IMG/VR virus record: IMGVR_UViG_3300031256_000055
Location: 1 to 56,710 of that record
Reading direction: 5' to 3' (one strand)
Origin: a virus
Taxonomy: Duplodnaviria; Caudoviricetes
Length of the DNA stretch: 56,710 nucleotides
The position numbers were made by a program, and so were the translations under genes. The notes under the pieces were generated by a model. The model was not told where the DNA came from, did not search any database, and saw only the letters and a program-made list of their open reading frames with translations. The stretch's first letter is position 1. The number at the start of each line of letters is the position of its first letter. This document shows positions 9,994 through 46,085 of the stretch, in pieces.

Positions 9994-10041
9994 TCACATG
10001 AAAAAAAAATAAAAAAAATATCGATTTGGGGGTATTTTTAC

Positions 10042-10302: not shown

Positions 10303-10556
10303 TTCCCCCGGAGAGCAATACGTAAGCTCTCCTTCTTTTACCCAGCCTCATTCGTTGAGTGGGGCTGAGCGAAATAAAGGAGATAAGAGTATGAAAGCAG
10401 AAAAGAAGATAAGAGAAGACCTGGTATTAGTCAGATTGATGATAAGAGAAGGAAATATATATTATTACAAGTATTTCCAAAGCAAGAATTCCCCGGAAAC
10501 CGACATAGAGCGGGACCGGAGATATAAATAACTTAATTTATAAGGAGAGTGAAACT

Positions 10557-11702: not shown

Positions 11703-11744
11703 ATTATAAACCCAGCGCCCAGGGTTAAGGGTAAGGAGAGAATC

Positions 11745-12165: not shown

Positions 12166-12402
12166 ATGAGAGAACTTACAAAAGAGCAATTTTTAGTTCG
12201 GGCAGAAAATATCTGCACTACGATAGGAATGGAAACCGGAAAATACTTTTATATTGAAAAAGTAAATTCCGGACCTAATTATGATATTTTTTGTGGACAA
12301 ACACACATCATACAAAGTGATGATTTTTCATTTATTCTTGGATTTTTAGGAGGCATGTTATATGTTTTTCGCGATGAAGTATTACCCAACACCCAGGGTT
12401 AA
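12166..12402 (+). CDS. Hypothetical early protein
   Basis: 78 aa, AGGAGG SD. Confidence 0.6.
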   Translation: MRELTKEQFLVRAENICTTIGMETGKYFYIEKVNSGPNYDIFCGQTHIIQSDDFSFILGFLGGMLYVFRDEVLPNTQG

Positions 12403-12722
12403 GGGTAAGGAGGCGAACATGCAAATTATGGTTACTATTTTGGTTATTGAGTTTATCATCTGGGGAGGCTTATTGGTTTCTTCGATGAGTGGAAGAAAAC
12501 CTGAAAAAAAATAAAAGGCAGAGGAGAGTGTAAATAATGTACAACACATATTATCTTGTTTTATTCCTTTACTACTTCTCTGGTTATGTCAATGCCTGGA
12601 ATTATTACAAATGGATCATGTCGGAATCATTCATAACTGTCCCGGGAATAATCCGAAAGACCTGGAGATCAACAAAGCATCCCCGAATGAATAAGGGGTG
12701 GAAGGGGTCAAGATAATTATAC

Positions 12723-21700: not shown

Positions 21701-22089
21701 GAACCGAGATAGTATAACGCATCGGCAGCTTGCCGTGCCGTAAAGCGAGTGTTCTCACCGGCATCTTTTGCGGCTTGAGTCATAATCCTTAATTCTTCAC
21801 CGACAGCCCCGGTAACAGATTTAACATTTTGCATTGACTGTTGAAATCCGGAAAAAATCATTATACCTTGTTTTATGCTTGAGAAAAACTTATTGACAAG
21901 TTGAACCGCTCCGAAACCAAAGGCGGTTGAAAAAGAGTTTTTCCAGAACTCGCTGAACCCCTGGGAAGTCTTTTTTGAATCACTTACGAATGAGCTGATT
22001 TTTGCTTTTGCGGTTCTAAAGTCGGCTTCAAGGTTATTGAGACGAATTCGCAAATCTGCATATATGGAGCCTGAACTTATACCAGCCAT
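18784..22089 (-). CDS. Tail tape measure protein (TP901-type core)
   Basis: GSIYADL, TRFTARQAADALYYLGSAG, GQAAGRALK; 1101 aa, Ala-rich and helical. Confidence 0.93.
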   Translation of the reverse strand: MAGISSGSIYADLRIRLNNLEADFRTAKAKISSFVSDSKKTSQGFSEFWKNSFSTAFGFGAVQLVNKFFSSIKQGIMIFSGFQQSMQNVKSVTGAVGEELRIMTQAAKDAGENTRFTARQAADALYYLGSAGFSASQSIAALDGVLQLAGATQSDLASTAESVASIISQYGLKASEATNISNVFAAAIGNSQATMEKLTNSFRQVGPVAAGFGYTVEETTGILQELYNAGFQGQAAGRALKSALADLASPTENIKTIFAKLGIELSKVNPETNSFADIIDVLGNSGATTANIIDAFGKVAGPQMAVLIKQGGDALRRYTDDVTGTNAAAEAYKIQNDSLAGSMDFLKSKLEGVAISIVEKFEPGLRDLIKAFINFLDATKPIGEFLGNIFNIILKFTSISTNVITGIFNALLDGFKSNQTPMEKAGEGLAKVSEAIKKAGELGNTAKKLNQLTDEYEALSKKTNLTESEQGRLKTVISQIEKIMPSAVTKFDEYGNAIEVSGEKSKEAARQMLLAREATIQNGLTQLKMSESLYKRTILQTEADAKSTEQNRNRLIAQSANAQARLATLEKFRTEYKLLQDQEEEPNGPFQTFALYQANFNKVLSEMKDELKSVGLTFNEVKGDVSKGEIFEDNQFIRVEQEISNANKTLNQLQKSIDKPTKSEQLYKDAKAKLDEIVELEKSLRDIQNDIAGLDKDVKVPSIKDEIIKSWKDYLKGIEEATTEARLFGDEQDVLKARMDFLKESYLAAKEEGLDPLSAIMIKIREEYDRTKEALDELIQSEKDDLAVQERRQKISKDISDLIADYEKKLEDVNKSEKEKAIDLVKNMGASETATNAAIDAINRYWDAIGDDKAEKKKEEFRNLVYEIISSAQQLTDALTSLFSQLTDNRIDELDRQMRAELEAAGLSEETERERLEAQLEAARKAGDKDKELEIQNALDRLDIEEKYEKQKAELQYKAAMNEWYIKLTSATASLAQAIMVATAAAPWPANIPAITFAVAQGVNVAAVAAAKPQPPQFETGGISTGPKSGYPAILHGTEAVFNEDQMKNLFNMVASGGGSVQGNGEIAVTVIMKLESDVLGRAVAKTQNNGIIEFKPRSTY

Positions 22090-30961: not shown

Positions 30962-32140
30962 TCATAACTTAACAAACTGATCATTTCCAAGAATCGAATT
31001 ACTTAGTTTATCAGCTCCCGGACCCTCTGTCGAAATCAAATTTGATTCGGAATAAACATCAGCGGCCTGTTTTGACAAACTTAAAACAACCGGGTTCTTT
31101 TTCGCGGTTTCGATTTGCGCTTTCAATTCGTCTATACTTTGTTTGTTTTTTAATACAAGCGGTTCCGCGGCATTCCGGATAAGATTGTCTGTCTCAACCC
31201 CATTGACCTTCTTTTTTTCAGGACCGAATTCTTTAAACATAATTTTTTCACGCTCATTATCATACAACTGTTGTTCAACTTTACCGGCGTTTAATTTCAA
31301 TTCGTTAATTGCCGCAATTGGATTTTCACCCACGATGGTTTTTATTTCATCGATCATTTTAATTGCGTTCATATGAACATCGGTTGCAATCGGTATCTTA
31401 AGCCGATTCGCAAGATCAACAACCGAGACTGTACCGTTTGTTAGTCGATTACCCAGGTTTATAATTATTTCATCAAGTGTTAATGTATTTTCTGGCATAC
31501 TTCTTTCCTCCGTTTTATCTTTATTTATATTATTTTTATCCTGGTTTTTATCCAGGTTTTTATTAACTTTCTGTTCCATCGCTCCCATGTCACGCTCTAC
31601 GGCATCGTTGCGCTCACCTTTCGCGGACCGAATAGCTTTACGGGAAATCACATTTCCTTCCTCATCATAATCGACTGACATTTCAGGCCATGTAACAATC
31701 GAAAAATGAATAACTCCGGTTTTAACAGCCTTGATAAATGTCTCATTCGATGAGCTTTGTCCCATGGGGGGAATGTACATTTTTAATTTTATAGAGTTTC
31801 CTGATATCTCACCACCAACAACGAAAAAATCAGATTCCCCGGTTGCCCACCATTCCCAAGGGTCGGTATGCCCTGACTTTGCCCCTGGAATTGGTGCATC
31901 GTTTAATTTTGCAATATACGATTCCCAAAATTCGCGGGTGTACTCAATACCATTCGCGGGTAATGTATAATCAAGAATTTCCTCGACAACATAATAAGGC
32001 TTTTTATCGCCTGCCGTTAATACTGATAGCGAGGCGTTTGGGATGAGGTTTGGTATTGTTTCTGGTGGGATAGAGAAATTTAAAACAGTTCTGCATAAAA
32101 AAGGGGTATCGGATAGAGTTTTTTTATTAGTTATTATCAA
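30962..32140 (-). CDS. Prohead protease/scaffold-like protein (start revised to TTG 32140)
   Basis: GGGAGG SD 9 nt before the in-frame TTG; ANGIEY, KSGH, HFSI in the N-domain; helical C-terminal half. Confidence 0.6.
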   Translation of the reverse strand: MIITNKKTLSDTPFLCRTVLNFSIPPETIPNLIPNASLSVLTAGDKKPYYVVEEILDYTLPANGIEYTREFWESYIAKLNDAPIPGAKSGHTDPWEWWATGESDFFVVGGEISGNSIKLKMYIPPMGQSSSNETFIKAVKTGVIHFSIVTWPEMSVDYDEEGNVISRKAIRSAKGERNDAVERDMGAMEQKVNKNLDKNQDKNNINKDKTEERSMPENTLTLDEIIINLGNRLTNGTVSVVDLANRLKIPIATDVHMNAIKMIDEIKTIVGENPIAAINELKLNAGKVEQQLYDNEREKIMFKEFGPEKKKVNGVETDNLIRNAAEPLVLKNKQSIDELKAQIETAKKNPVVLSLSKQAADVYSESNLISTEGPGADKLSNSILGNDQFVKL

Positions 32141-32172
32141 AATATAAAGCCTCCCAGCTACTACACTATATA

Positions 32173-32200
32173 AGTATACACTTGTTAAGTAGTTTGTCAA
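32173..32200 (-). promoter_or_regulatory. Promoter of the head-tail-lysis operon
   Basis: Minus strand TTGACA-N16-TATACT; predicted transcription start near 32166. Confidence 0.65.
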
Positions 32201-32240: not shown

Positions 32241-32269
32241 TTGACTTATTACCCAAACGGGAGTATTAT
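32241..32269 (+). promoter_or_regulatory. Early promoter with operator variant, divergent from the head operon
   Basis: TTGACT-N17-TATTAT; TACCCaaacGGGAG. Confidence 0.75.
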
Positions 32270-32316
32270 ATATATAGATAGCGTGAATGAAACACGCAAG
32301 CTTGTAGGAGGGCATT

Positions 32317-32838
32317 ATGATAATTAAAGCAAATGAAATATCTAATTCATATAAAGGTTGGGTAAAGAAAATTACCCCCGACAAAGTTAATTTAAAAAAA
32401 TATAATGGATATTCCCTAATCGGGAATTTTTACAAACCGGATGAGGCTATTGTTATTGATAGCGGAGAATTTTTTGTTATTGATTCAGGGGGCAGACGCC
32501 CTGTAAGAAAATTGTATAGTTCTTCTTCAAAGGAAATAACAAAAAAAATGAGACGTTCTGTTCAAAAGAAAGCTAATTTTTCAGAAGAAATATTGGCAGG
32601 AATTGAAAATTCTATATTATATGATTTTGGTGCATATGTAGTTGCTTTATCTATTATTACAGAAAAAATAAAAACCCCTAAAAAAGAATTCAATCCTCTT
32701 GAAAAATTTACGATTGAACAGCTTATTAAAGAACTTCAAAATAGAGGGCATAATATAAAATTAGACGATAAAGATATTTTCTTAAAAAGTTCTAAACCGG
32801 AAGAAAAAGGCCGATTTGCAGCCTTAGAATTGGAATAA
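32317..32838 (+). CDS. Hypothetical protein
   Basis: 173 aa, AGGAGG SD. Confidence 0.65.
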   Translation: MIIKANEISNSYKGWVKKITPDKVNLKKYNGYSLIGNFYKPDEAIVIDSGEFFVIDSGGRRPVRKLYSSSSKEITKKMRRSVQKKANFSEEILAGIENSILYDFGAYVVALSIITEKIKTPKKEFNPLEKFTIEQLIKELQNRGHNIKLDDKDIFLKSSKPEEKGRFAALELE

Positions 32839-32842
32839 TATT

Positions 32843-33157
32843 ATGAAAATAAAAACATATACAATTGAGAAAAATGTAAGAGATAATATCAAAGTCTGGG
32901 GGGCTATTATAGTCGGATTACACCCTAAATATAATTTTAATCGAGTGTTTTCTTCATATCGATATTTAAATGATTGTAGTTCAAAACACGCTTATTATGA
33001 TTATTATATTGATGTGGAGGAAAATCAAATAATAGAAATAGGCATCAAAAGTCAATATAAAAACAAAAGATTATATTACCATCTTAATAACGGTCAATTT
33101 GTTTGCATTAAACAAGAAGATGTTGTAAGGATTTTAAATGAACAAGAAGTGGCTTAA
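32843..33157 (+). CDS. Hypothetical protein
   Basis: 104 aa, coupled to the next gene. Confidence 0.6.
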   Translation: MKIKTYTIEKNVRDNIKVWGAIIVGLHPKYNFNRVFSSYRYLNDCSSKHAYYDYYIDVEENQIIEIGIKSQYKNKRLYYHLNNGQFVCIKQEDVVRILNEQEVA

Positions 33158-34400
33158 TATAAATGTCTTAGAAGCTGCAAAAGAAAGGATTAAATATATA
33201 TTCGATGAATTTGAATGTATTTATATTTCTTTTTCGGGTGGAAAAGATTCAACGGTTATGCTTCATCTGGTAATGGATGAATGTATAAAGCGTAATAAAA
33301 AGATAGGGTTACTATTTATTGACTGGGAAGCTCAATACAAGTACACAATAGAACACATTAAAAAATGTCTTGAATTGTATAAAGAATATATAGACATATA
33401 TTGGGTGGCGTTACCGTTAAAAACAACCAATTCGGTTTCTCAATTCGAACCTGAATGGATATGCTGGGAAAGGGGGAAAGAAGATATATGGGTAAGAGAA
33501 TTACCAAATAATTGTATATCTGCTTATAATTTTTTTGATTTTTATCATTATGGGATGTTATTTGAAGAATTCATTTTTGAATTTGGTAAATGGTATCAAA
33601 AAAGACAAGCGGGTAATAATGAATACACTAATATTCACACGGCTTGTCTTATAGGAATAAGAACTGACGAAAGCTTTAATCGACTCTTGAAATTAAGAGT
33701 TGAAAAATATAGAACTTTTTATAAAAAGAAAAAATGGATTCTTAAGCAGAAATCGACACAAAGGAATATTTTTTCTGTGCATCCTATTTATGATTGGAAA
33801 ACAAAAGATGTTTGGACTTATACAGGAAAATACGATAAGATTTATAATAAATTATATGATAGGATGCATCAAGCGGGTGTTAAATTATCTCAGCAAAGAA
33901 TATGTGAACCGTATGGGGATGAACAAAAAAAGGGATTATGGTTATTCCATATTATCGAACCCGAAACATGGGGTAAGATAGTTTCCCGAGTTAATGGTGC
34001 TAATAGTGGAGCTTTATATGCTAAAGAGAATGGAAGTATTACAGGTAGAATAAAAATAACAAAGCCAGAAAATCATACATGGGAATCCTTTGCGAGATTT
34101 TTATTAAATTCTATGCCAACAGCAACCAGAGAACATTATGAAAATAAAATATTGATTTATATTAATTATTGTAACAGTCAAAATATTCCTATTCCCTATT
34201 TTCAAGACAAAGATACAGGGACAAAAGATATTCCTTCATGGAGAAGAATATGTAAATGTTTACTTAAAAATGATTATTGGTGTTATATGCTTTCTTTTTC
34301 CGCAAATAGAAGTGAATTGATTGATAAATATTTAAAAATGATGAGACGTAGAAAACAAACGCAAAGATTTCAACAATTAAAAAAAAGACATCAATTATAA
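33138..34400 (+). CDS. PAPS-reductase-family / DUF3440 protein (IbrA-like)
   Basis: ISFSGGKDS PP-loop, FIDWEAQY, IGIRTDESFNR, PIYDW, QRICEPYG, SWRRICKCLLKNDYWC. Confidence 0.88.
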   Translation: MNKKWLNINVLEAAKERIKYIFDEFECIYISFSGGKDSTVMLHLVMDECIKRNKKIGLLFIDWEAQYKYTIEHIKKCLELYKEYIDIYWVALPLKTTNSVSQFEPEWICWERGKEDIWVRELPNNCISAYNFFDFYHYGMLFEEFIFEFGKWYQKRQAGNNEYTNIHTACLIGIRTDESFNRLLKLRVEKYRTFYKKKKWILKQKSTQRNIFSVHPIYDWKTKDVWTYTGKYDKIYNKLYDRMHQAGVKLSQQRICEPYGDEQKKGLWLFHIIEPETWGKIVSRVNGANSGALYAKENGSITGRIKITKPENHTWESFARFLLNSMPTATREHYENKILIYINYCNSQNIPIPYFQDKDTGTKDIPSWRRICKCLLKNDYWCYMLSFSANRSELIDKYLKMMRRRKQTQRFQQLKKRHQL

Positions 34401-34966
34401 TGAAGATAAGAGAGGTTAAAATGGATTTACAAATATTATCTAACGAACAGGCTTTAACAGAATTAAATTTTGTTAAAGATAATCCCGTATCAAAAATATA
34501 TTGGATTCCTATTTATATGATTTCTGCAAATAATTATAACCCTAATTCAGTAGCTAAACCAGAAATGGAATTATTAGAATTGAGTATTAACAAAGATGGA
34601 TATACACAACCAATTGTTGTTTGGAAAATTGATCAGGACAAATTTGAAGTCGTAGACGGATTTCATAGATACTTAATTGGTAAAAATAAATTAAAACTAT
34701 CTCATCTGCCTTGTGTAATAATAAATAAAGATCGTATAGACCGGAATGATAGAATTGCTTCAACAATAAGACATAATAGAGCAAGGGGAAAGCATAAGGT
34801 TGAATCTATGAGTGATATAGTCGTCGAATTATCTCGAAGGAATTGGAGTGATAAAAGAATAGCAAAAGAACTGGGTATGGATCAAGATGAAATTTTGAGA
34901 TTGAAACAGGTTACAGGACTTGCTGATTTATTTAAAGATGAAGAGTTTAGTCAGGCATGGGAATAA
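34400..34966 (+). CDS. ParB/Srx-like nuclease-domain protein (IbrB-like)
   Basis: ANNYNPNSVA, DGYTQPIV, VVDGFHR, ASTIRHNRARGKH, C-terminal HTH, FSQAWE. Confidence 0.88.
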   Translation: MKIREVKMDLQILSNEQALTELNFVKDNPVSKIYWIPIYMISANNYNPNSVAKPEMELLELSINKDGYTQPIVVWKIDQDKFEVVDGFHRYLIGKNKLKLSHLPCVIINKDRIDRNDRIASTIRHNRARGKHKVESMSDIVVELSRRNWSDKRIAKELGMDQDEILRLKQVTGLADLFKDEEFSQAWE

Positions 34967-34995
34967 AAATAATTAAATTATTTTCACTTTACCTA

Positions 34996-35024
34996 TTGAC
35001 TTATTACTCGTTTAGGTATATATT
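34996..35024 (+). promoter_or_regulatory. Early promoter with operator variant
   Basis: TTGACT-N17-TATATT; TACTCgtttAGGTA. Confidence 0.75.
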
Positions 35025-35070
35025 GTATATATAAGGGTTGCAGAAAACAACCTAAACCAAGGAGGCGATT

Positions 35071-35268
35071 ATGATAGACAATACAATAATTAGTGCTATA
35101 GTTGAAGGGCAAATAAGAAAAATTATTGCCCTTTGTGACACAAAAATAGCCCAGGGTGACCGGGTTGAAAACATGCAAAGAATAAAAAAAAGTGCGCAAC
35201 AAGTAGTTGATTCAGGCGATGATGATCTAATGGTTGCATGGTGTCAAAAAATGGGCGTTAAGCTTTAA
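35071..35268 (+). CDS. Hypothetical protein
   Basis: 65 aa, AAGGAGG SD. Confidence 0.65.
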   Translation: MIDNTIISAIVEGQIRKIIALCDTKIAQGDRVENMQRIKKSAQQVVDSGDDDLMVAWCQKMGVKL

Positions 35269-35269
35269 C

Positions 35270-35425
35270 GTTCCGGTGTCGCGAAGCCGGTAAGAGTCGG
35301 GTAATTTCCCGGCGTAACGGTGTGTCGGGTAATCGTGCCAATCCTGACAGTTCACGTGAGACTATACCACGAATCCAAATTAAAACGGTCGGTGTAAAGC
35401 CTCCCAGCTATTACGCCGACCTCGG
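35270..35425 (+). ncRNA. Putative multi-hairpin regulatory RNA with an anti-SD loop
   Basis: GC-rich intergenic island with several stems; last hairpin 35387-35421 exposes CTCCCA and is complementary to the late 5' UTR 32141-32166. Confidence 0.65.
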
Positions 35426-35433
35426 GAGGAAAG

Positions 35434-36907
35434 ATGTTTATTATTATATTGTTTTTACCTGCATATCTATTGTCAGGATATGGTGTCTTTAAAGGATTAA
35501 TTGATAAAAATATATATTCAATAGCTTCCTGGGGTTGTTTGATGATAGTGATATCTATTTTTGTGATAGGAATAGAAATATGCAATTCAATAAACAACAT
35601 AAACAAAAGAACAACAAATTAAGGAGTGACAGCCATGACAACGATTGATAAAATTGCAACCGTAGATTTTTTGAAAGAAATCTACAAAAAAATCAAACCG
35701 TCAAACACCAAAGGGATAACTATATCTCATCCCTTGTTTGTGTTTGATAAGCCGGAAAAGGAAAGTCACCTTGCTAAACTCATCATAAAACTTGAAGAGG
35801 AGATATTCTTTGATGAAAACGGAGAATAACGCCGAGACAATAACCTGCATAATATATATCAATAATGAACCTTTTTTATGTTTTCCGGAATCGAAGGAAG
35901 TTTATAATGAAATGATATATTACAAACTTCCTTATCAGAAAAGGGCAAGATTCAGATTGTCTGAAATACCAAATCTTAAATTCAGGTTTTTAGAAATTAG
36001 AGAATCATTATATAACGGATTCTTTAAAATCAATTGTGAAATGGAGTAAATTATGAAAGATGAAATTGTTTATAAAGAAAAATATCGAAAACCAGGTGTG
36101 AAACATATTAAACCTCCTGTGGTTGATAGCGACATGGAATGCTTTGAGGCTTATACAATCGAAGCGGGGATAATTGAAAGAGACGGGCAACGGCTTGAAT
36201 ATCAAATTATTAAAGCTTTTTTTAAAGAGAAGGATATTAATCATGACAATAAACGATTTTTTAAATATGGATGTAATTGCATTAAGTAATTATATTGATG
36301 ACAAAAAACATTATGATAAAATATCAAAAGATTTGTATCGTTCAACCTGCGAATGTATAGATGCGATAGACGCATTAAGCAATGAAAATTTTCCCGTTAA
36401 TACTGCAGGTAATAGACAGATGAATGTAATCGTAATTGAGATACTCAAAGACTATACCGAACGAATAAAACGAGGTGAAATAAAATGAAGAAATGTATTT
36501 TTTTATATTCCCGAATATACACAATATTAAAAAACACAAAACGTAAAAAAGACAGGATAAAAAATAAAAGACTATTTACATGCAAAAACTTTATGGCAAC
36601 AAACCTGAACGTAAGCAAACCTTTTAAAAATAGGTTTCTACATTGCTTTTTATGTCCGTTCAAAGAAAAGGAGTAACCCATGAACCCATCAGATCAGGAG
36701 TATAATGATATAATGAGACAAACACCCGAGAAACCGCGGTGTAAAGTCTGTGATAATGAATTCGCCGACAGAGACCCGAAAATTAAAACGGTCTTATTAT
36801 TAAATTACGATGCTAAAGATAACGCTCCGATATATGGTGAATTCTATATTTGCCGGGGGTGCATTTACCGTATATCAGCAACGATTGATGTTATGTTACA
36901 AGATTAA
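35434..36907 (+). other. Run of small, translationally coupled hypothetical genes (35434, 35626, about 35813, 36053, about 36243, 36485, 36680)
   Basis: Tightly packed 60-105 aa ORFs, several with SDs; no recognisable motifs. Confidence 0.55.
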
Positions 36908-37914
36908 GCCGCAAGATATACATTACTGTACCATGAGTCAAGATGCGGAACTCCTATACCTTTTCCCCATTCGATTAGATCCTCTACGAATTTATCGCGG
37001 CTCATAATCTTTTGAGTTATATAGCATAAGCAATTCGGATGAGGAAAATCAGGAACACTCCCTTCCTGGTACGGTGAATCCGCCGCAAGATCCGGACAAA
37101 TACAATTTTCATGAGATACACCTCCGGTTAGATTCCATATATATTCCAATATCGCCGGGTTTAATTTTCCTTGCAATTTCGCGGCATCCTGCAGGGATAT
37201 ATACAATTCCGATCTTGCAAGACGCATCGCCCTCCAATCTATATTTTTAGGGATGCGTTTCCTGAATTTGCCGGATCCACTGACAAGATCCCCGTATCGT
37301 TTCATCAATCCCGACTTGCCCTTGTTAGCATATACTGACAAGTCTTTTGCTATATCCAAGACATCCCGCCCCTGGGCCAACCCGGATAAGACAAGATCCT
37401 TGACATTATTTTCCCAATATTTCGCTAACCCTGGCAGGTACGGTTGTTGATCGGTCCCGGGAAACCCCCATATTTTATCAGAAAATTTATACCCGTCATC
37501 CCATATCCTGTTATATGTTAATTCTATAAGATCAATATTTATTTGGGTATACAATCCTTCGATAACATCAAACTTGATTTTTTCTATATCAGCGGCCCGT
37601 AATGCATCAGAAATATATTTTATATGCGGTTTGCTTGTCTCTGTTATAGATTTATTTATTGTGTCAATTATTGATATTTCAACCTGAGCGGCTATATGCG
37701 CACCGGTATCCCTTAATGATTTTTCAAGGGCTTTAAGGGAATCGGCGGTTAATGATTTTCCACTACTTTTTATTTTAAGTGTTTTTATTTTTTCGGCGAC
37801 TTCATCCGCAGCCTTAATATATATATATGCTATCTCACGACGGATTGTACGTGTTATGCGTTTTATAGATTCCTGTGATTTTTTTTGTGCTTTGTAAAAA
37901 TCGGCTTGTGTCAA
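36904..37914 (-). CDS. Minor head morphogenesis protein (Mu gpF / SPP1 gp7-like)
   Basis: FSDKIW, AMRLARSEL, CICPDLA, PHPNCLC. Confidence 0.8.
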   Translation of the reverse strand: MTQADFYKAQKKSQESIKRITRTIRREIAYIYIKAADEVAEKIKTLKIKSSGKSLTADSLKALEKSLRDTGAHIAAQVEISIIDTINKSITETSKPHIKYISDALRAADIEKIKFDVIEGLYTQINIDLIELTYNRIWDDGYKFSDKIWGFPGTDQQPYLPGLAKYWENNVKDLVLSGLAQGRDVLDIAKDLSVYANKGKSGLMKRYGDLVSGSGKFRKRIPKNIDWRAMRLARSELYISLQDAAKLQGKLNPAILEYIWNLTGGVSHENCICPDLAADSPYQEGSVPDFPHPNCLCYITQKIMSRDKFVEDLIEWGKGIGVPHLDSWYSNVYLAA

Positions 37915-38181
37915 TTATGGTTAACCTCAAATGTCATGTTTAAGGTTCTATTATTTAGTTTATCCGGATAAAATAAAGTTAACATCCCGTATGAATAATA
38001 AACCGGGGCATTATATAGATAGATGGCTTTACCGACTTTTATTATTTTTTTCATTAAGTTTTCCTCTTAATTTTTTTTGAACATTTTTGACAAATAGTTT
38101 TTCCTTTTAATATAAATCTAACATAAGAATTCCTTCCACATTCATCACAAGTGCCTCTACCAGTTATATATTTTATTTTTT

Positions 38182-38871
38182 TCATAGATTCCCCTGGAAA
38201 ATTAAATCTTGCATTTCATCTTGTGGGAATAAATTGGTTTGTGATATATGGTTTTTATACCGGTCCTCTTGAGCTTGCCAGTAATCCGGGTCATTTTCGG
38301 TGCCGATAAAATCAAACCCCATGTCATAACAGGCGATACGGGAAGAACCGGAACCCACGTGTGAATCAAAGATTTTCCATTCGGATTGAGTGTAGTTTTT
38401 AAGGAGCCATTTATATAAGGCAATGGGTTTTTGATGCCTATGGATTCTTATTTCTTTATTTCTCATATTTCCCTGCAGCATACCAGCCCATCTATATTTA
38501 AAAATCCTTGTTGCTATATTAAAAGAAGTCCATGCAAGTTCACAATCCGCATAATCAGTATTTCCATTTTCTTTATCCCAGATTATCATGCATGAGGTAT
38601 CATATAAATCATTTATAAAATAATTGCCACCCCATATTATTTGATTTTTTGATATTCTAAAAAGTTCTTTAAAATAATTTGAGTCTGGTCTTTTACATTC
38701 ATAAGGTTTGTATTTTTTAGCAAATGCTTTTTTACCCCTGGTTTCATTTTTCGATGTTTCCTCTCCATTCCCATACGGCGGATCCACAACCGCCAAATCA
38801 AAAAACTTATCCGGTACCGTCGACATATACTCCATATTGTCGACGCAGTACACTTCATTTTTAATACTCAA
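38182..38871 (-). CDS. DNA amino-methyltransferase (N6-A/N4-C, beta class)
   Basis: DLAVVDPPYG, IIWGGNYF, HRHQKPIALY, FDSHVGSGS. Confidence 0.92.
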   Translation of the reverse strand: MSIKNEVYCVDNMEYMSTVPDKFFDLAVVDPPYGNGEETSKNETRGKKAFAKKYKPYECKRPDSNYFKELFRISKNQIIWGGNYFINDLYDTSCMIIWDKENGNTDYADCELAWTSFNIATRIFKYRWAGMLQGNMRNKEIRIHRHQKPIALYKWLLKNYTQSEWKIFDSHVGSGSSRIACYDMGFDFIGTENDPDYWQAQEDRYKNHISQTNLFPQDEMQDLIFQGNL

Positions 38872-40367
38872 TTTTCACTCCTCTTGTCTGTATTTTCATC
38901 ATCCTGGTTATCATCATTACCGTTCCCCGTTCCGTCATTTTTCATATCATAATACGCCTGGTCAAGATAAGACGATAACTCACCATCAGCTTTTATAGCA
39001 GCTTCAAAATCTTCGTAAGATATTTCGACCTTATCCTTTAGCAATTCCTTAAGTATATTATATGCCGTGCGCCGTGAAACCGCCTTACTATTCAATAACT
39101 GCATTATCGAATCTGAATAATTTTTAAAAATTACACTTCGTTCTGTTTCGGTTAGACTGTCAATATCATTCCAGGGAATATTTATTTTTTCAGGCGGTGT
39201 CATGTTATACGCTAACCCTATCAATCCAAGTGTTGCAGTTATTAATTCATGATAGGGGTTATAATATTGAGCCTGTAATTTCCCGATATAAGCTATGAAT
39301 GAACTTTTTTGAGTTTCCGGCGATGAGGCATTCCCAACCATCTGCAATCCCCATAGCATTTCAGGAATACCGGTAGTCTGACATATACCCCAATAATCAA
39401 TGTTTAATATTTTTTCAAAATTTTCGATAACGTGTTGAGGGACAATAATTTCTGTTTTTTCAACACCTGTTTTATTAATCACAAAATTTTTATTCGATAT
39501 CGAAACCTGTGATAAATCATCATACCCATTATTAGAAAGCCATGTGTCAACGTCGGATGTTTCCTGTATTTGCTTCGCAGTGGTACTTAAACCATTTTCA
39601 TGAGTTACTTTGTTAACCTGCGCATATGCCTTAATCAAGGGTATTATTTTCTCAATTTCGGAATGGCCTTCAAAATCACCTTCTATTTTCCGATTGCAAA
39701 ACAATACCGGTAATATCCCGGTTGGGTTTTTCCTGATTACGCTTTGATTGATTCCCCTGGGAAGTATCCCGTACCTTGTAACAATTATTTTACTTTTCGT
39801 ATAGGTGGTTTTTTCTTTAAAATTATACAACGTCTTATCATCCATCGTGTAGAACTGATAATAAACCGTCGTGACAAACCCGAAATACTGTTTTGTTGAT
39901 GGATCTATTAAGACATCGGATATATCTTTTGATTTGATGAACCTCCATTTTACTCGCCCGGTCGACGCTTCAAACCACGGGAAAACAGCCAGGGTTCCTA
40001 TGAGATTTGCAAGCAATTGAATGTTTTGTTTTATAATTACAAACTTTTCGTTATAGTATTCTAATTGCTCATCCCAGAATTCATCCTGGTTATCCTCAAA
40101 TTCAAAATGAGGAAAACCCATAAAATTAAGAGGGATGTCAATAACCGGAGCACAAAGAAAAGCCCCGAGTTTATATCCTGGTTCAGTGTTATTATATAAG
40201 TTGATAAGCAAATCATAATTGGCGGTTTCCGGAAATGTCAAATCTATCCTGGCATTATCAGATCTTCCAACGGTCCCGCGGTTAACCGCGGATGAAGAAG
40301 AAAACAAACTTGAATATAAATTGCTTAATGAAGCCGCAACACCATTCCACCAATCAGAAAAACCCAT
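38868..40367 (-). CDS. Portal protein
   Basis: 499 aa between terL and the minor head gene; ILPVLFCN..FEGHSEI, TGIPEMLWG; acidic tail. Confidence 0.75.
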   Translation of the reverse strand: MGFSDWWNGVAASLSNLYSSLFSSSSAVNRGTVGRSDNARIDLTFPETANYDLLINLYNNTEPGYKLGAFLCAPVIDIPLNFMGFPHFEFEDNQDEFWDEQLEYYNEKFVIIKQNIQLLANLIGTLAVFPWFEASTGRVKWRFIKSKDISDVLIDPSTKQYFGFVTTVYYQFYTMDDKTLYNFKEKTTYTKSKIIVTRYGILPRGINQSVIRKNPTGILPVLFCNRKIEGDFEGHSEIEKIIPLIKAYAQVNKVTHENGLSTTAKQIQETSDVDTWLSNNGYDDLSQVSISNKNFVINKTGVEKTEIIVPQHVIENFEKILNIDYWGICQTTGIPEMLWGLQMVGNASSPETQKSSFIAYIGKLQAQYYNPYHELITATLGLIGLAYNMTPPEKINIPWNDIDSLTETERSVIFKNYSDSIMQLLNSKAVSRRTAYNILKELLKDKVEISYEDFEAAIKADGELSSYLDQAYYDMKNDGTGNGNDDNQDDENTDKRSEN

Positions 40368-40385
40368 ATACTACCTCCCGAGACT

Positions 40386-40754
40386 TTAAATAGTGTTATT
40401 ATAGTCTATTAACTCTTGTTTTGTCAAGTATTTTCTGTGTTTGTTTTTTATCTTACAAATTCTATGCTCTTCAACACTTCCGGGCGATTTTTTCCACCCG
40501 GGCATAAAAAAAATTATATCACATTTCAACATCCAGGAAATGCAATCATCAAGAATAGCTTCCCTGCCCTCAATTGTGTAGTCGGCCCCCTCTAAATACA
40601 TAAAATTAGTATGAGGACAAAAAACTGTATATCCCTTGCTTCTCAAATAAGCTGCCGCTTTCATAGCCTCCTGGATATTTTCTCTTATGGTTTTTTTGTC
40701 CCCCGAATAAGGCCCTGCAACATAAGCAAATATTTTTTCTTTCGTTTTGTTCAT
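40386..40754 (-). CDS. DUF4406/DUF1937-like (nucleoside deoxyribosyltransferase-fold) protein
   Basis: AYVAGPYSG, VFCPH, CDIIFFMPGWKKSPGSVEE. Confidence 0.75.
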   Translation of the reverse strand: MNKTKEKIFAYVAGPYSGDKKTIRENIQEAMKAAAYLRSKGYTVFCPHTNFMYLEGADYTIEGREAILDDCISWMLKCDIIFFMPGWKKSPGSVEEHRICKIKNKHRKYLTKQELIDYNNTI

Positions 40755-42136
40755 ACATCCAACCTCCCAGCATTACGCCTGATATTTTTTCTTACCTTCT
40801 CTCGCATCTTTTCCCGGTTTTCCGACGACACAATAAGACTATTCCCTGACACATAACAAGCCAATACAACCGCGTCACCTTCATCCGGGGACCGACCATA
40901 CAAATCCTTAAAATCTTCTTTTTTCTGTATTTTTTTTCGGATCTTCGTATCATATCCATACGTCCGGGCCGTCAAATCTTGCACTAAGTCTGTTGAATTA
41001 GAATCTCTGGGGATTTCAAGATATTGCATCATTTCGGCGGTTTCAAAATACATTTCCGTTGCTACATTCGCATATTCCTTGTCATCTTTTGCGGTTCCAC
41101 CGAAGTTTATAGGGTTCACATTTTTAAACCCCCATAATTTTAATTGATCTATCATACCACCGGCCCCTAATCCCCCGTTATCTATATTTATGATAGAGAA
41201 TTTATTATCTGCCTTGGCCGCAACCTCTCTGGCTGTCACTATAGGAGCTTCGTGTTTTATCCTAAAAAGTTTTTTCATCTTATATCCACGTCTCTCATAA
41301 GCAATAGAAAAATCATCGCCAAACCTTGCAACGTCTACACCTATTACCTGTTTCCCGGATGCCTTGACAATCCTATTCATAGCAAGATCAACAAGATCAC
41401 GTCTCATTATAGCTTTTTCAACCTGAGCTATGGGTTCATTCATATAGATATGTAAATATTTGTCATAATTATTTTTACGCATGATTTCCATTTCAAGGCG
41501 TAGTACATCAGGAAACCACGGATTGTCTATATAATTACATTCGATGAATAGGGTTGATGGATCATCTTTACACATGTTGTATTGTTTCATCACCGGGTCA
41601 ACCTCAAAATATTTGTTCCATATCATCCATATTTCGGAGTCAGGCGCGCGGATGGTATGAATAGCCATATCCCAGGACACTTCCGGTACCGCTTCCCCTT
41701 CATCGACTATCAGATAGTTGAAATTAGAATATCCCTTGATTGATCGTGCAGCCCGTAAATCACGCAACCCTTTGAATTTAAAAATACTGCCGGTTTTTAT
41801 ATTAACAATTTTTTCGTTTTGTATATCCCAATTCGGATATCCCATATACCGTATCATTTCTGCAATTTCTGAGTGCAAGGAATCCGCTATTGAATCCAGG
41901 ATTTCCCTTGCCCACAAAACCTTGATTCGTCTAATCGAAGCAATACGTATCATTATCCGCACAACAGATTGTGTTTTCCCGGACCCCCTCCCACCAGTTA
42001 TAAATTTCTTACGGTAAGGTTCCCACAAGGGCATGAGCTTAGGCGGGATTTGATCAAGCTCTTGCTGTCTCAATAATTGCAAGAGCCTAATATTATCGTG
42101 TGTGTCTATTGTTTTTTTATATACTGGTTTTATCAA
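40751..42136 (-). CDS. terL: Terminase large subunit (PBSX/SPP1-like)
   Basis: GGRGSGKT, FKFKGL, IVDEGE, NYIDNPWF, GVDVARFGDD, SPDEGDA. Confidence 0.93.
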   Translation of the reverse strand: MIKPVYKKTIDTHDNIRLLQLLRQQELDQIPPKLMPLWEPYRKKFITGGRGSGKTQSVVRIMIRIASIRRIKVLWAREILDSIADSLHSEIAEMIRYMGYPNWDIQNEKIVNIKTGSIFKFKGLRDLRAARSIKGYSNFNYLIVDEGEAVPEVSWDMAIHTIRAPDSEIWMIWNKYFEVDPVMKQYNMCKDDPSTLFIECNYIDNPWFPDVLRLEMEIMRKNNYDKYLHIYMNEPIAQVEKAIMRRDLVDLAMNRIVKASGKQVIGVDVARFGDDFSIAYERRGYKMKKLFRIKHEAPIVTAREVAAKADNKFSIINIDNGGLGAGGMIDQLKLWGFKNVNPINFGGTAKDDKEYANVATEMYFETAEMMQYLEIPRDSNSTDLVQDLTARTYGYDTKIRKKIQKKEDFKDLYGRSPDEGDAVVLACYVSGNSLIVSSENREKMREKVRKNIRRNAGRLDV

Positions 42137-42355
42137 TATCTCATTCCAATATTTTAATTTATTCCATTCCTGTTTCTACAATTTATTTTTATTTCACAAT
42201 TAAAGCACCCCGGTTGATTTATGCAAAATTCATTAAAAGAATCTCTAAATAATTTATCAAACATAAGCGCCCACACAATATGACTTTTTTTGCTGGGTAA
42301 ATTATTATAATATATAATATAATTTAAAAAATCTTCTACAAAGTCTATGAATGTT

Positions 42356-42709
42356 TTAATTATTATTTGCATTATGTAAAGGATCCTTTTTTCTTAATTC
42401 CTGCAATAAAATCCCTGTTTTCAACTCTAAAAAAGATTTATCCCCACAATACGAATCATTAAGTTTTAAAATTTCCTCCCGTCGGTAAAATACACTTTTC
42501 CCTTCAACCAACCTTTCCCAGGCTGTCAAGATCCCGGAAAATGTGTCCCATTCGTCGATGTCATTACATAAGGACCATCCGCAATAGCCATTATTTATCA
42601 AAATAACGCCTATCTTTCTACGGGTTTCATCCCGGACATAAATCAACCGGTCAACCTCTGCCGGTAAGTTCTCAAACTCGTCTACAAAACATTTCGGTAG
42701 TTTACTCAT
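42356..42709 (-). CDS. Hypothetical protein
   Basis: 117 aa, AAGGAG SD. Confidence 0.6.
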   Translation of the reverse strand: MSKLPKCFVDEFENLPAEVDRLIYVRDETRRKIGVILINNGYCGWSLCNDIDEWDTFSGILTAWERLVEGKSVFYRREEILKLNDSYCGDKSFLELKTGILLQELRKKDPLHNANNN

Positions 42710-42918
42710 TACTACAACTCCTTTTCTTTAGTAAGTATTTTAAAAATAATTATCTATATAGACTATTATTTTTTATCTATATTTTTTTTAATTGCTTCTT
42801 CTATACAATTCAAAAGCGCTGCATTTCTTTTATAATTATGATTTAAATTAAGATAATCTATAATATAACTTAATGATTCCTTTGCTGCCTTTTCTATTTG
42901 TTGATTATTCATGAAAAT

Positions 42919-43212
42919 TTACTCCTTTTCTTTCCTAAACTGTCTAATATAATTCACCAACGGCAACGCCGTGATCGGTGTACGATGTTTCAAGCTATAT
43001 GCAAGATACACAATCTCGCCTAAAAATTCAACCAAAATTAAAACTTTTGTATTTGACTGGATTTTGTAATCAATAATATCCCCACTTTCAATCTTTTTTA
43101 TGAGATTCTTTATATCTCGCCTGTTACATAATAATTCATATCTATGCCATAATCGGCTTTTAAAATGAGCTTTTTTGAATCGTTTAACATCAATATAACG
43201 CTCATTCTTCAT
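42919..43212 (-). CDS. Small basic hypothetical protein
   Basis: 97 aa, overlaps the terS-like stop. Confidence 0.55.
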   Translation of the reverse strand: MKNERYIDVKRFKKAHFKSRLWHRYELLCNRRDIKNLIKKIESGDIIDYKIQSNTKVLILVEFLGEIVYLAYSLKHRTPITALPLVNYIRQFRKEKE

Positions 43213-43810
43213 TTTTATTTTCCGGTATGTCTATGGGTGGGGCTATGGCTAAAACCTTATTACTTGATATATATTCTTGAATTTCAGCTATCCTTTCTGC
43301 ATCGGTCATTTCGTATATAGGCTTTTTCCCGGTGGCATCTTCATTTAGATCCGTGTCATGAATCCTGAACACTTTCTCGACAAACTCACGGGCTTTATCA
43401 CGGTCACATAATTTTATCTTGATCTGTTTTCTCCCGAGTCTATCATAACTTGTTTCTATTGATTCAATACAATATGCGAAATCATCCAGGGCTTTTAATG
43501 TAGTTGCCCCCTTCGGTAGATTTAACTCACCATCAGGCGTTATAATATCACCTGGATTAAAACAAGTTCGGATCAACCATATTTTTATCAACCGGTCTTT
43601 AACAGTCTCGCGCCTAACGCCTGTCATATACTCGCCATAGCGGATAAGTGCTTGACGGCCCTTTTGAGATTTCAAAAATCTGGAAGGATATATAGACGTT
43701 TTATATCCGCCGATGCCCGGGAAGATACGATAATCGTTATCTACATAATCAATTATCGTTTGTTGCTGTTTATCGTTTAATCCCTGGGTCCAGTAATCGT
43801 CAAAAAGCAT
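43202..43810 (-). CDS. terS: Terminase small subunit (probable)
   Basis: LNDKQQ, FNPGDII..DG, IKIKLCDRDKA, MTDAER; upstream of terL. Confidence 0.65.
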   Translation of the reverse strand: MLFDDYWTQGLNDKQQQTIIDYVDNDYRIFPGIGGYKTSIYPSRFLKSQKGRQALIRYGEYMTGVRRETVKDRLIKIWLIRTCFNPGDIITPDGELNLPKGATTLKALDDFAYCIESIETSYDRLGRKQIKIKLCDRDKAREFVEKVFRIHDTDLNEDATGKKPIYEMTDAERIAEIQEYISSNKVLAIAPPIDIPENKNEE

Positions 43811-44344
43811 TTTTTATTTATCATCCTCTTTTGTTTTGTTTAGCTTATCCCCGCAAGCACTTAATCCCTTACTATCCATCTGCTTTAGATATTTCATACA
43901 GTTTTCATCATACAGCTTAGCATTGCAAACAAACCGAGCCGCACATTCTTTTCCAGTAGGGGTCAAACAATCAGCTTCCATATATATCGTCCTCGTCTAT
44001 ATTTAATTCAGCCATTCCTTTTTTAGTAATTATTAATTCATCGTTTTTTAGTTTTAAATAAATGCCATATTCCATGATTTTATACATCATAAACAACCCG
44101 GCTAAAAAACAAACTATTGCCGTTATTATTGTTATAATCATTTTTCATTCTCCTTGTTCCTTTTGATATCCAAAAAGAATATCATCAATTATACAATCTC
44201 CCATATACATATGACCTAATTCTTTAAAAGAAAAAGGAGGAATTCCTCTTTCTTTTAGCTTATTAACGCATTCCTCAAGGATATTATAATAATTTTTCCC
44301 ATGTTTAGGGCTACCACTTCCGGCCATTTTTTCATTTACTGCTT

Positions 44345-44755
44345 TCATATCCTCATCTTCCTCGCTTTCTTAAATAACTTATCGTCTATAGTCGCGGCGC
44401 ACTTAATTACCTGTGAAGCTAACCACTGCCTTCCCTCTGCGACCGAACTAACAACCGTCGAATCTTTCAGAGACGAAAAGCAAAATATCTCGCCTTCCCG
44501 TACTTCAAACATAATACCGAGAAATATACCGAAGTATGTAACTTTTTTTGATTTACATATTTTTGATAATGCAATTACTTCATCGGAATAAAATAATTCA
44601 TATCCCCTGCGCTTCCGTTTAGGTTTATACTTTTGGCGCTGTTCAATTTCACACTCCTTACATTTCGGTCGATATCCACCCATACCGGATTTATAGAATT
44701 CATGAATGGGTTTTGTTTCATTACACTTTGAACAGGTTTTTGTTTTTTCTTCCAT
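44345..44755 (-). CDS. Cys4 zinc-finger protein
   Basis: KTCSKCNETKPIHEFYK..RPKCKEC; no catalytic HNH motif seen. Confidence 0.6.
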   Translation of the reverse strand: MEEKTKTCSKCNETKPIHEFYKSGMGGYRPKCKECEIEQRQKYKPKRKRRGYELFYSDEVIALSKICKSKKVTYFGIFLGIMFEVREGEIFCFSSLKDSTVVSSVAEGRQWLASQVIKCAATIDDKLFKKARKMRI

Positions 44756-44758
44756 GGG

Positions 44759-45505
44759 CTATATGTCCCAATTTTCAGGATCATTTTTAAAATTAACATC
44801 ACATATATTTTTCAAAAAACAAAAAGTGCAATCAAGTCTATCGCTACAATATTTTTTAATTTTATTAAGTATTTTTTTTGCTTCTTTTAAATTTAATATT
44901 TCCCGGGATACATCGGTTGGCTGTATATTTTCCCCCGACTTCCCGGGAACTTCTTCAAGCCATTCGGGGAGCCAGAAAAATCCATAATCAAAATAGTTTC
45001 CTTCCCCCTCCGTGCTATTTGAATTTATTTTTTTACCGCAATAATCAAACATTTTATTAGAAAAACCACAATTATCAATTTCTCTGTGTACATATCCTGT
45101 AATATATTCTATATACCCATTACTCTTAAGCCACTTCACTATCTCGTCTTTCGATTTTACGTAAAGCCCTGGCTCGCGGGTGTCGGGGTGAATAACAGAA
45201 AAAACCGTTTTATCTTTACCCGATGCGATATCAATACCAACAAATGTTTTTTGCAGTTTATTAACCAAATCGTCAAAATCTTTTTTTAATTCTGTGATCT
45301 GTTTTTTAAAATCAACAATATCACAATGCTGCTTAGTAAAATTCCTGGTATTATCATCAACAAAAGTACTGAGTATTCCTCTTGATGATTCAAGGGTTTT
45401 TATCCGGGATTCGAGTTCCTTTAAAATCCAAGCTTGCCATTTGTCAAAATTATTATCAATATTACAGTGGACAAAATTAATTTTTTCTTCACTCATGTTC
45501 ATCAC
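44759..45505 (-). CDS. Hypothetical protein with coiled coil and C-terminal Cys4 module
   Basis: 248 aa; IKKYC..CTFC..C..PENWDI. Confidence 0.6.
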   Translation of the reverse strand: MMNMSEEKINFVHCNIDNNFDKWQAWILKELESRIKTLESSRGILSTFVDDNTRNFTKQHCDIVDFKKQITELKKDFDDLVNKLQKTFVGIDIASGKDKTVFSVIHPDTREPGLYVKSKDEIVKWLKSNGYIEYITGYVHREIDNCGFSNKMFDYCGKKINSNSTEGEGNYFDYGFFWLPEWLEEVPGKSGENIQPTDVSREILNLKEAKKILNKIKKYCSDRLDCTFCFLKNICDVNFKNDPENWDI

Positions 45506-45537
45506 TCCTTATAAATTAAATTAAACATATATAAGAT

Positions 45538-45566
45538 ACTATACCAAACTCAGAAATAAAAGTCAA
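45538..45566 (-). promoter_or_regulatory. Leftward promoter
   Basis: Minus strand TTGACT-N17-TATAGT upstream of 45505. Confidence 0.65.
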
Positions 45567-45569
45567 GTA

Positions 45570-46085
45570 AAATCTTTATTTGTGACCCTTTGTGACAATA
45601 AATTACAATTACAACCATTTGTCAAAAATAACTTGTTATACCATAAGGAATTAACTTGATATAGAAAAAGTTTTGACAAAAAAAATATTGAGTCTGTCAA
45701 AAATAACTTGTTATACCATAAGAAATTAAATAAATATTTGGGAGTTTTGACATTTTGACAAGTTCTGCACACATATATATATGTATTAATATATTTTATA
45801 TAAATTTATATAAAATTCTCTATGCGTATATATATAAATTTTAAATTTAATAAATTTTTTATTAAAGAGGGATTAATTGCTTATACCATAAGAAATTATT
45901 TTTGACATCGAATTGTCAAGGCGTGTCAAAACTTTTTGGAAAGTGAGTTAACTTGTTATATTATAAAGAATTAGTTTTGACACGAGTTTTGACAAAATGA
46001 TTTATTTTTTGTCAAAAAACCTAATTTAATTTAGAAAATAATTTATTTATATTTATTATTTGATTATTTTTATTATTTTTAATAA
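45570..46085. repeat. Non-coding iteron-like repeat region with AT-rich core; candidate replication origin
   Basis: 35-bp repeat TGTCAAAAATAACTTGTTATACCATAAGRAATTAA at 45620 and 45695, partial copies near 45876 and 45950, many TTGACA/TGTCAA, nearly pure AT 45775-45865. Confidence 0.65.

Follow-up and report, generated by a model that had tools for sequence, protein, structure and literature searches.

The window analysed here is the complete IMG/VR virus record IMGVR_UViG_3300031256_000055 (56,710 bp, from a salt-marsh metagenome). On its plus strand it carries a GC-rich hairpin (site B) whose C-rich loop and adjoining stem bases are complementary to the whole predicted 5′ untranslated region (5′ UTR; site A) of p392, the first gene of a capsid and tail operon that runs in the opposite direction. 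The repeat formed by the two sites is real and conserved, and in related phages the two copies have changed in step. We hypothesize that the hairpin is probably a trans-acting RNA directed against the ribosome-binding site (RBS) of p392, a candidate protease-scaffold gene, and that it limits or delays translation of that gene. Feature coordinates are collected in Table 1.

Predicted pairing between the hairpin and the p392 leader

RNAfold predicts site B as a 14-bp stem, interrupted by one bulge and capped by the 6-nt apical loop CTCCCA, exactly where an initial annotation of this DNA had placed such a hairpin. Aligned without gaps, 35391–35416 and 32141–32166 are identical at 21 of 26 positions and share an exact 16-mer (35395–35410 = 32145–32160). 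The five mismatches, read on the plus strand, are A>G at three positions and C>T at two, and all become G-U pairs with the minus-strand RNA. Pairing is bounded by 32167 and, at the other end, by 32140, where the in-frame TTG start codon begins. The duplex covers the entire predicted 5′ UTR, including the Shine-Dalgarno (SD) sequence and all bases up to the start codon. These values reproduce the match described in the initial annotation, and the complementarity ends where that annotation had put its limits, at the predicted transcription start near 32166 and at the base before the TTG. Computed duplex energy is −46.1 kcal/mol. Cofolding of the whole surrounding element with the mRNA leader gives −86.8 kcal/mol vs −66.4 kcal/mol for the two monomers, a preference of ~20 for the dimer.

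The hairpin has extended complementarity, in the form of a 26-bp duplex, to the RBS of an mRNA encoded elsewhere, and this site ranks first genome-wide. When 11,332 windows from both strands were scanned for duplex formation, with the hairpin's own locus set aside, 32121–32180 on the minus strand came first at −46.1 kcal/mol, as the initial annotation had predicted. With the same exclusion, the p392 leader also ranks first in the related loci L045, L074 and L083. The repeat is the only one to contain GGAGG or CCTCC among the window's 612 maximal direct repeats of at least 12 nt. Its 16-mer occurs in exactly two copies at up to three mismatches vs 0.24 expected, and shuffling reached two copies in 3 of 100 trials. 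A repeated 16-mer that is at least 50% G+C (8 or more bases) likewise arose in 3/100 shuffles. Within this single genome the match is only moderately beyond chance, and it is the relatives that make the case strong.

The second-best pairing site lies at the RBS of a nucleoside deoxyribosyltransferase-like gene (Table 1). It shares GGCGTAAT and GCTGGGAGG with the complement of the hairpin, 17 nt in all, with one extra base between the two blocks in the hairpin, and this match is unlikely to have arisen by chance. We rejected it as a conserved target: both of the two differences found there in the related locus L008 break the pairing, with the L008 hairpin unchanged. Duplex scans with H1, H2, M2 and H3, the other parts of the element, returned no outstanding target.

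Conservation and covariation in related phages

Homologues of p392 numbered 29. An alignment of 12 homologues retrieved 39 metagenome loci and 12 viral loci, and from these 51 we examined 26 together with the window; the rest were duplicate contigs, had no upstream sequence or had an unclear start codon. L045/L085, L082/L094 and L084/L095 are the same contigs. The alignment search found no homologue in prokaryote genome contigs, and a single-protein scan of IMG/VR with p392 gave no relative. The close clade comprises eight loci with p392 42–96% identical, all with TTG starts. The leader stretch TAGTAGCTGGGAGGCT is identical in seven of these eight lineages, the exception being L083.

Both sites are kept in every lineage with at least 2 kb of upstream sequence (the window, L074, L045, L082, L083 and L084), although the p392 proteins of these six are only 42–53% identical. 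Upstream in each of them, and on the same DNA strand, the RBS region recurs within a GC-rich hairpin of an operon of opposite direction. The exact core shared by the two sites measures 16 nt in the window (spacing 3250 nt), 19 nt in L074 (285 nt), 18 nt in L045 (603 nt), 15 nt in L082 (613 nt), 23 nt in L083 (470 nt) and 15 nt in L084 (2730 nt), and in all six it is longer than in any of 300 shuffles of the lineage's own upstream region. No second copy is present in the 825–900 nt available upstream of p392 in L043 and L044; the gap in L043 is bridged by its overlap with L008, and the L044 contig ends in what appears to be the first stem-loop of the element. The 19 distant homologue loci (~30–35% identity) contained no repeat spanning the SD. 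One of them, L049, has a 20-nt repeat of the promoter-proximal part of its leader.

In 6/6 lineages the hairpin lies 11–36 nt before the ATG of a same-strand open reading frame (ORF), with an SD-like sequence between. It is preceded by a same-strand ORF in five of the six, and by a promoter in L074. The next ORF downstream is unrelated in four of the six lineages (only L074 and L083 share 35% identity), and the genes that separate the two sites are different in each lineage. The L074 cassette next to the element includes an ORF with a long tandem Cys-rich repeat of CSDC/CRYC units (859–1392, minus strand). Runs of T follow the hairpin on its 3′ side in L082 (7 T) and L084 (8 T) and in none of the other four. 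In those two lineages the hairpin would end a discrete RNA, whereas in the window the RNA would continue into the next ORF.

The initial annotation had looked to co-conservation and covariation of the two sites in relatives as support, and both are found in all six assessable lineages. The flank that follows GGCT is identical in the two sites of each genome and differs among genomes, reading TTTAT in the window, ATTCT in L074 and ATC in L045. In L083 the SD is TGGAGG instead of GGGAGG and both flanks differ, yet the same 23 nt stand at both sites; this lineage carries ~6 matched substitutions. Cognate pairs have longest paired runs of 26, 22, 22, 16, 23 and 15 nt (window, L074, L045, L082, L083 and L084, respectively) and duplex energies of −46.1, −41.1, −41.4, −37.1, −40.2 and −33.8 kcal/mol in the same order. 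Non-cognate pairs within the GGGAGG group mostly have runs of 15–19 nt (22 nt for the L045 hairpin with the L074 leader), and those involving L083 have runs of 6–9 nt. The cognate energy is the best in its row for four of the six lineages, and 14 of 720 partner permutations reach the cognate score. All seven differences inside the duplexes, five in the window and one each in L074 and L045, keep a G-U pair, with duplex ends being set where pairing stops. The outer stem of the hairpin occurs in three unrelated versions, each self-complementary, around a constant loop CTCC[C/A]A. A folded RNA is favoured because the outer stem stays self-complementary across these three unrelated sequences.

A structured element with mosaic boundaries

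The hairpin is the last part of a structured GC-rich element of ~165 nt that fills the gap between the ORF at 35071–35268 and the next ORF, p62. Stem-loops H1 and H2 are followed by motif M2 (~35318–35352), a variable hairpin and finally the anti-RBS hairpin. The element has a minimum free energy (MFE) of −58.8 kcal/mol (z −2.2), and in the MFE fold the SD of p62 is not paired with the hairpin loop. H2 contains pairs in which both bases differ, five out of the 11 that are predicted in H1 and H2 together. The stem of M2 is conserved. The 33 loci anchored on IbrA, the PAPS-reductase-like protein encoded upstream of the element in the window, all encode IbrA, 31 of them also encode ParB, and none has the element.

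Similarity to other genomes breaks at both edges of this element. L008 is ~90% identical to the window over 35268–45328; the likeness starts exactly at 35268/35269, and the sequence further upstream is unrelated. DNA contigs of the salt-marsh runs X2 and X3 cover 31803 to ~32300 and resume at 35268 without the intervening cassette, and one X3 contig diverges from the window once more at 35434, where the next ORF has its start codon. Because the breaks sit at 35268/35269 and 35434, the element is a module with sharp mosaic boundaries on both sides. The hairpin is identical in L008, with substitutions falling just outside it. Among the changes listed for the variant strains (L008 and the X2 and X3 contigs, for which nine less supported rows are left out), none falls in site A or in the hairpin; the nearest are a deletion of 35379 and substitutions at 35381, 35383, 35422 and 35423.

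The stretch 32317–35268 (p173, p104, the IbrA-like and ParB/IbrB-like genes and p65), missing from the X2/X3 contigs and from L043 plus L008, looks like a moron-type insertion within the structural region; its junctions lie near 32301–32320 and at 35268. The first 127 nt of L043 are identical to the end of L008, and its p392 is 96% identical. L043 and L008 thus appear to represent one phage type, in which the two sites would lie ~1 kb apart without the IbrA/IbrB cassette.

Database searches placed the element in no described RNA family. Rfam gave no match in the window at the gathering score, and a permissive search of 35150–35550 gave matches at chance level only (E 1.9–7.5). In seven related loci, only a tRNA (L045) and Hammerhead_II (L084) were matched, neither at the element. 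The L084 match, a type II hammerhead ribozyme at 9172–9235 on the minus strand (44.4 bits vs a gathering score of 37), lies between the two sites of that phage, on the strand that encodes the element. With no Rfam match, and with downstream ORFs unrelated in 4/6 lineages, the element does not correspond to a known riboswitch or curated cis-regulatory RNA. A blastn search of 34900–35700 against phage GenBank sequences gave no match. The exact 16-mer is present in eight IMG/VR loci, of which L008 is the only related one. A pattern search for M2 in viral contigs returned three, all already known, and two pattern searches for the hairpin returned known contigs only. Fifteen genome matches to the M2 pattern, mostly from high-GC or otherwise unrelated taxa, were taken as chance (two of the 15 were read); the two low-GC matches, L098 and L109, lie inside apparent coding sequence.

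The target gene and its promoters

The p392 protein has no Pfam and no PHROG match. Its AlphaFold model, built from 12 homologues, has a predicted local distance difference test (pLDDT) score of 75, and Foldseek matches residues ~1–185 to T4 gp21 (5jbl; E 4.8e-4, probability 1.00, target-normalised template-modelling score 0.55). The C-terminal half of the model is helical. His91 and Ser147 are invariant across the 12 homologues. From the model we read p392 as a putative prohead protease fused to a scaffold-like domain. The initial annotation had called p392 the first head gene. A prohead-protease fold agrees with a head gene, but p392 opens the second structural operon and is not the first head gene overall, as the terminase, portal and head-morphogenesis genes form a separate operon at 36904–45505.

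Transcription of p392 is predicted to start near 32166 from TTGACA-16-TATACT, and TTGACA boxes stand at the equivalent place in relatives. A plus-strand promoter-like site lies back to back with it (32241–32269), and the L074 homologue of that site directly precedes the element and is predicted to drive it. In the window the nearest upstream site on the element's strand is the one at 34996–35024, which shares CTTGACTTATTAC with 32240; no plus-strand terminator is predicted between it and 35434. The annotation had placed the RNA downstream of this promoter. The TTGACT-17-TATATT sequence is indeed there but belongs, with the genes upstream of 35268, to a lineage-specific insertion and not to the conserved unit.

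A third copy of this promoter type, CTTGACTTNTTAC, is present at 10041, and the hairpin-rich leader at 10296–10376 is ~90% homologous to the leader that precedes the element in L043 (92–173) and L008 (9724–9759). A short stem-loop of 4–6 bp with an A-rich loop follows each plus-strand promoter-like site (32270–32300 and 35025–35052) and recurs in L074 (~2080–2066) and L045 (~9790–9773); it could be a 5′ stabiliser or a protein-binding site.

Proposed mechanism and alternative explanations

We infer transcription of the element, pairing in the cell, repression, a role for RNase III and timing from sequence. The element would be transcribed on the plus strand within an operon of opposite direction to the capsid and tail operon, and its last hairpin would present the loop CTCCCA to the short p392 leader. 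Loop and SD would touch first, and contact would then spread into the adjoining stem bases. In the window the resulting duplex would reach 26 bp, beginning at about +1 and ending immediately before the TTG start, and exclude the ribosome. It would be long enough to serve as an RNase III substrate, and cleavage is possible. Synthesis of the protease-scaffold protein would then be lowered or delayed relative to the rest of the operon. Action in trans is suggested because the downstream ORF and the intervening genes vary, which leaves the protease RBS as the only constant partner. An early/late switch, as proposed in the initial annotation, is possible, though the three promoter-like sites all resemble ordinary sigma-70-type promoters of a host and so do not indicate its timing. 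The annotation had seen no phage sigma factor or late activator, and none was recognised in 60 ORFs scanned against PHROGs.

Several points weigh against repression in trans. No RNA run is listed with the stretch, and the matching reads are DNA contigs only. L082 and L084 pair over a core of just 15–16 nt, their cognate pairs are not the best in their rows, and the p392 site is not the top match in their duplex scans. Full pairing requires the hairpin to open, and its own fold is worth −19 to −23 kcal/mol. No terminator follows the hairpin in the window, so the RNA is not a discrete small RNA (sRNA) there. This also qualifies the annotation's description of a trans-acting antisense RNA: the specific complementarity holds up, but the RNA is not a free-standing sRNA here, as the hairpin sits within an operon, without a terminator and 2 nt from the next SD. 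The count of seven G-U-preserving differences out of seven is inflated, the duplex ends having been set where pairing stops. There are just six lineages, and L074 and L045 are alike. Repeated copying of one site onto the other by gene conversion would also produce matched changes.

Pairing could also work in reverse or in both directions, with the 5′ UTR of the abundant late mRNA binding the hairpin in the plus-strand transcript and causing cleavage or altered translation of the next ORF. Late in infection this would shut down the opposite operon. Complementarity and covariation fit this reading equally, the hairpin stands just ahead of the next ORF's RBS in 6/6 lineages, 11–36 nt before its ATG, and a 22–26-bp duplex would let both strands be cleaved. 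We nonetheless find this direction of control unlikely. The ORF after the hairpin is unrelated in four of the six lineages and has been exchanged in a variant strain that retains the hairpin, leaving the protease RBS as the only constant partner, and the duplex covers the SD of the target rather than that of the downstream ORF.

That the hairpin acts only in cis, as an anti-SD for the next ORF, an RNA stabiliser or a terminator/attenuator, with its likeness to the protease RBS a by-product, is decidedly unlikely. It always lies just 5′ of an ORF start, the window loop could pair with the adjacent GGGAGG, and the runs of 7 and 8 T in L082 and L084 are those of an intrinsic terminator. For such a role CCTCC would suffice, yet 5–9 more bases on each side match and covary with the protease 5′ UTR. 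Downstream SDs differ among lineages and are weak in L045, no T run follows the hairpin in four of six, and in the MFE fold the downstream SD is unpaired with the loop. The window hairpin is followed by TCGGGAGGAAAG and is missing from the terminator-scan list. Related readings were dropped. A minus-strand terminator would need a T run on that side, which is present in at most three of the six lineages and is not conserved; a pseudoknot between the loop and the adjacent SD was judged sterically unlikely, as a 2-nt linker would have to cross a 14-bp stem; and p62 was set aside as part of a type I toxin-antitoxin pair, the ORF downstream of the hairpin not being conserved.

A very unlikely reading is that both sites are operators of one protein, either a DNA-binding regulator acting at two places or a translational repressor that binds the same RNA hairpin, provided that site B has a sense transcript as well. 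The two copies are in direct orientation and contain an inner AGC/GCT dyad, a weak hairpin with the SD near its loop can form in the 5′ UTR, and palindromes overlap the target promoter in relatives. The outer stem of site B, however, pairs through three unrelated sequences, as expected of a folded RNA and not of a double-stranded DNA site. Matched changes would demand a co-evolving protein in each lineage, 7/7 differences go in the direction that keeps antisense pairing, and no candidate regulator was recognised in the 60 scanned ORFs. It is highly improbable that the repeat is a scar without function, left by recombination or duplication where a variable cassette ends: the sites flank the most variable stretch of these genomes, with cassette content differing per lineage, but the mosaic junctions (near 32301–32320, at 35268 and at 35434) are away from the repeats, and a scar would decay, yet the pair is kept within a conserved hairpin in 6/6 lineages at 42–53% protein identity.

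Comparison with known regulatory RNAs

The c4 RNA of phages P1 and P7 is processed from the leader of the very transcript on which its target lies. It is the nearest analogue of the window element, which is not a member of the c4 family. As described in PMC12197685, c4 (immI) is a non-overlapping phage RNA that presents complementary stretches in loops and covers the RBS of its target, and these stretches differ in matched fashion between related phages. The window RNA resembles c4 in not being encoded opposite its target, in having its complementarity in a hairpin loop over an RBS and in showing matched differences among relatives. In contrast, c4 controls an antirepressor and hence immunity, whereas the proposed target here is a candidate capsid protease gene on a divergent transcript. 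The window element also differs from c4 in having one long continuous pairing region, and it has no Rfam match and no likeness to c4 in sequence or structure; no Rfam family reached threshold for it in the window or in the seven related loci.

Other phage RNAs pair with phage mRNAs and block translation or promote RNase III decay, among them P22 sar, lambda OOP and aQ, and STnc6030 of prophage BTP1, whose target is a structural gene, the tailspike (as outlined in PMC12197685). The window element is likewise a phage RNA proposed to pair with a phage mRNA. Those four are transcribed from the strand opposite their targets and are fully complementary to them. Here the sites lie 285–3250 nt apart (3250 nt in the window, where identity is 21/26, unlike a cis-encoded antisense RNA of the sar/OOP type), and complementarity is partial with G-U pairs, so it must be kept by covariation.

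A third comparison is with C-rich-loop sRNAs. In S. aureus, RNAIII is such an RNA, and its hairpin doubles as a terminator; the hairpin would also act as a terminator in two lineages here (L082 and L084). The Gram-positive sRNAs SprX and 6C contact a G-rich SD through a C-rich apical loop, according to the accounts in PMC4005690 and PMC6486639. The window hairpin similarly has CTCCCA as the apical loop of a stable hairpin facing a G-rich SD. SprX, 6C and RNAIII are encoded by hosts or prophages, act on several targets and use short seeds; unlike these, the element described here has a 15–26-bp pairing that extends into the stem, one conserved target and a larger modular structure within a phage operon. 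No phage RNA targeting a prohead protease or scaffold gene turned up in the literature searched, with supplement-only catalogues lying outside that search.

Genome organisation

A 180-bp terminal direct repeat (1–180 and 56531–56710, with a single mismatch near position 53) indicates a circularly assembled or terminally redundant genome of ~56.5 kb. The gene map is based on 60 ORFs scanned with PHROGs and Pfam. Replication genes on the plus strand, including helicase, primase, SSB and an SbcC-like gene, run from ~45.9 kb across the ends of the record to ~12 kb. Structural genes form two minus-strand blocks, separated by a plus-strand cassette (32241–36907) that includes small ORFs. No integrase or repressor was recognised among the 60 ORFs, and ARAGORN found no genes in the window.

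The stretch at 45500–46000, from which the structural and replication genes diverge, is a regulatory region. It contains a direct repeat of 28 nt (at 45620 and 45695), another of 18 nt (at 45711 and 45881) and numerous TTTTGACA boxes, candidates for iterons, operators or stacked promoters. Where the plus- and minus-strand gene blocks meet, the GC-rich 21-mer CCCAGGGTTAAGGGTAAGGAG is present as a direct repeat (11718–11738 and 12392–12412).

Table 1 Features of the window, with strand and basis or remarks.
Feature	Position	Strand	Basis or remarks
Anti-RBS hairpin (site B), GGTCGGTGTAAAGC-CTCCCA-GCTATTACGCCGACC	35387–35421	+	Sequence and RNAfold
mRNA-complementary segment	35391–35416	+	26 nt: 21 Watson-Crick and 5 G-U pairs
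Predicted 5′ UTR with SD GGGAGG (site A), proposed target	32141–32166	−	ORF start and promoter-like site
Structured GC-rich RNA element, ~165 nt	35269–35433	+	RNAfold; comparison with L008 and run X2/X3 contigs
Target gene p392, TTG start	30962–32140	−	First gene of capsid/tail operon
Promoter-like site of target operon, TTGACA-16-TATACT	32200–32173	−	11/12 consensus positions
Divergent promoter-like site	32241–32269	+	Back to back with the target's promoter
Promoter-like site TTGACT-17-TATATT	34996–35024	+	Nearest upstream on the element's strand; sequence
Downstream ORF p62, small hydrophobic protein	35434–35622	+	SD GGGAGG at 35424–35429, 2 nt past the hairpin
Second-best pairing site	40748–40780	−	RBS of 122-aa nucleoside deoxyribosyltransferase-like gene (at 40754); −37.3 kcal/mol
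IbrA-like PAPS-reductase protein	33138–34400	+	Cassette
ParB/IbrB-like protein	34400–34966	+	Cassette
Large terminase	40751–42136	−	First structural block
Portal	38868–40367	−	First structural block
Head-morphogenesis protein	36904–37914	−	First structural block, which also holds a methyltransferase
Second structural block	32140 down to ~12.7 kb	−	Includes tape measure protein, 18784–22089

Implications

Control of late and structural genes in phages is commonly attributed to sigma factors, activators and antiterminators, and the prohead protease is required in small, well-timed amounts. To our knowledge, antisense hairpins that control a capsid-assembly gene at the RNA level without overlapping it are rare, and the prohead protease would be the target of riboregulation here. 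The part of the element formed by H1, H2 and M2 is an undescribed structured RNA without an Rfam family, and the covarying pairs of the six lineages are natural specificity variants, ready for use in reporter tests of anti-RBS pairing.

A bolder reading, which we hold to be rather unlikely, is that the element is a natural retargetable riboregulator, in which a conserved H1/H2/M2 scaffold recruits a host or phage factor and a lineage-tuned guide hairpin selects the target; the matched pairs, which differ among lineages (L083 from all others, for instance), could also set specificity groups. If so, the module would move between genomic contexts with its guide tuned to each phage's own capsid protease RBS. 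The RNA of one phage would then block capsid maturation of a close co-infecting relative, and not of a distant one, and this would amount to an RNA-based mutual exclusion analogous to P1/P7 heteroimmunity but acting at a structural gene.

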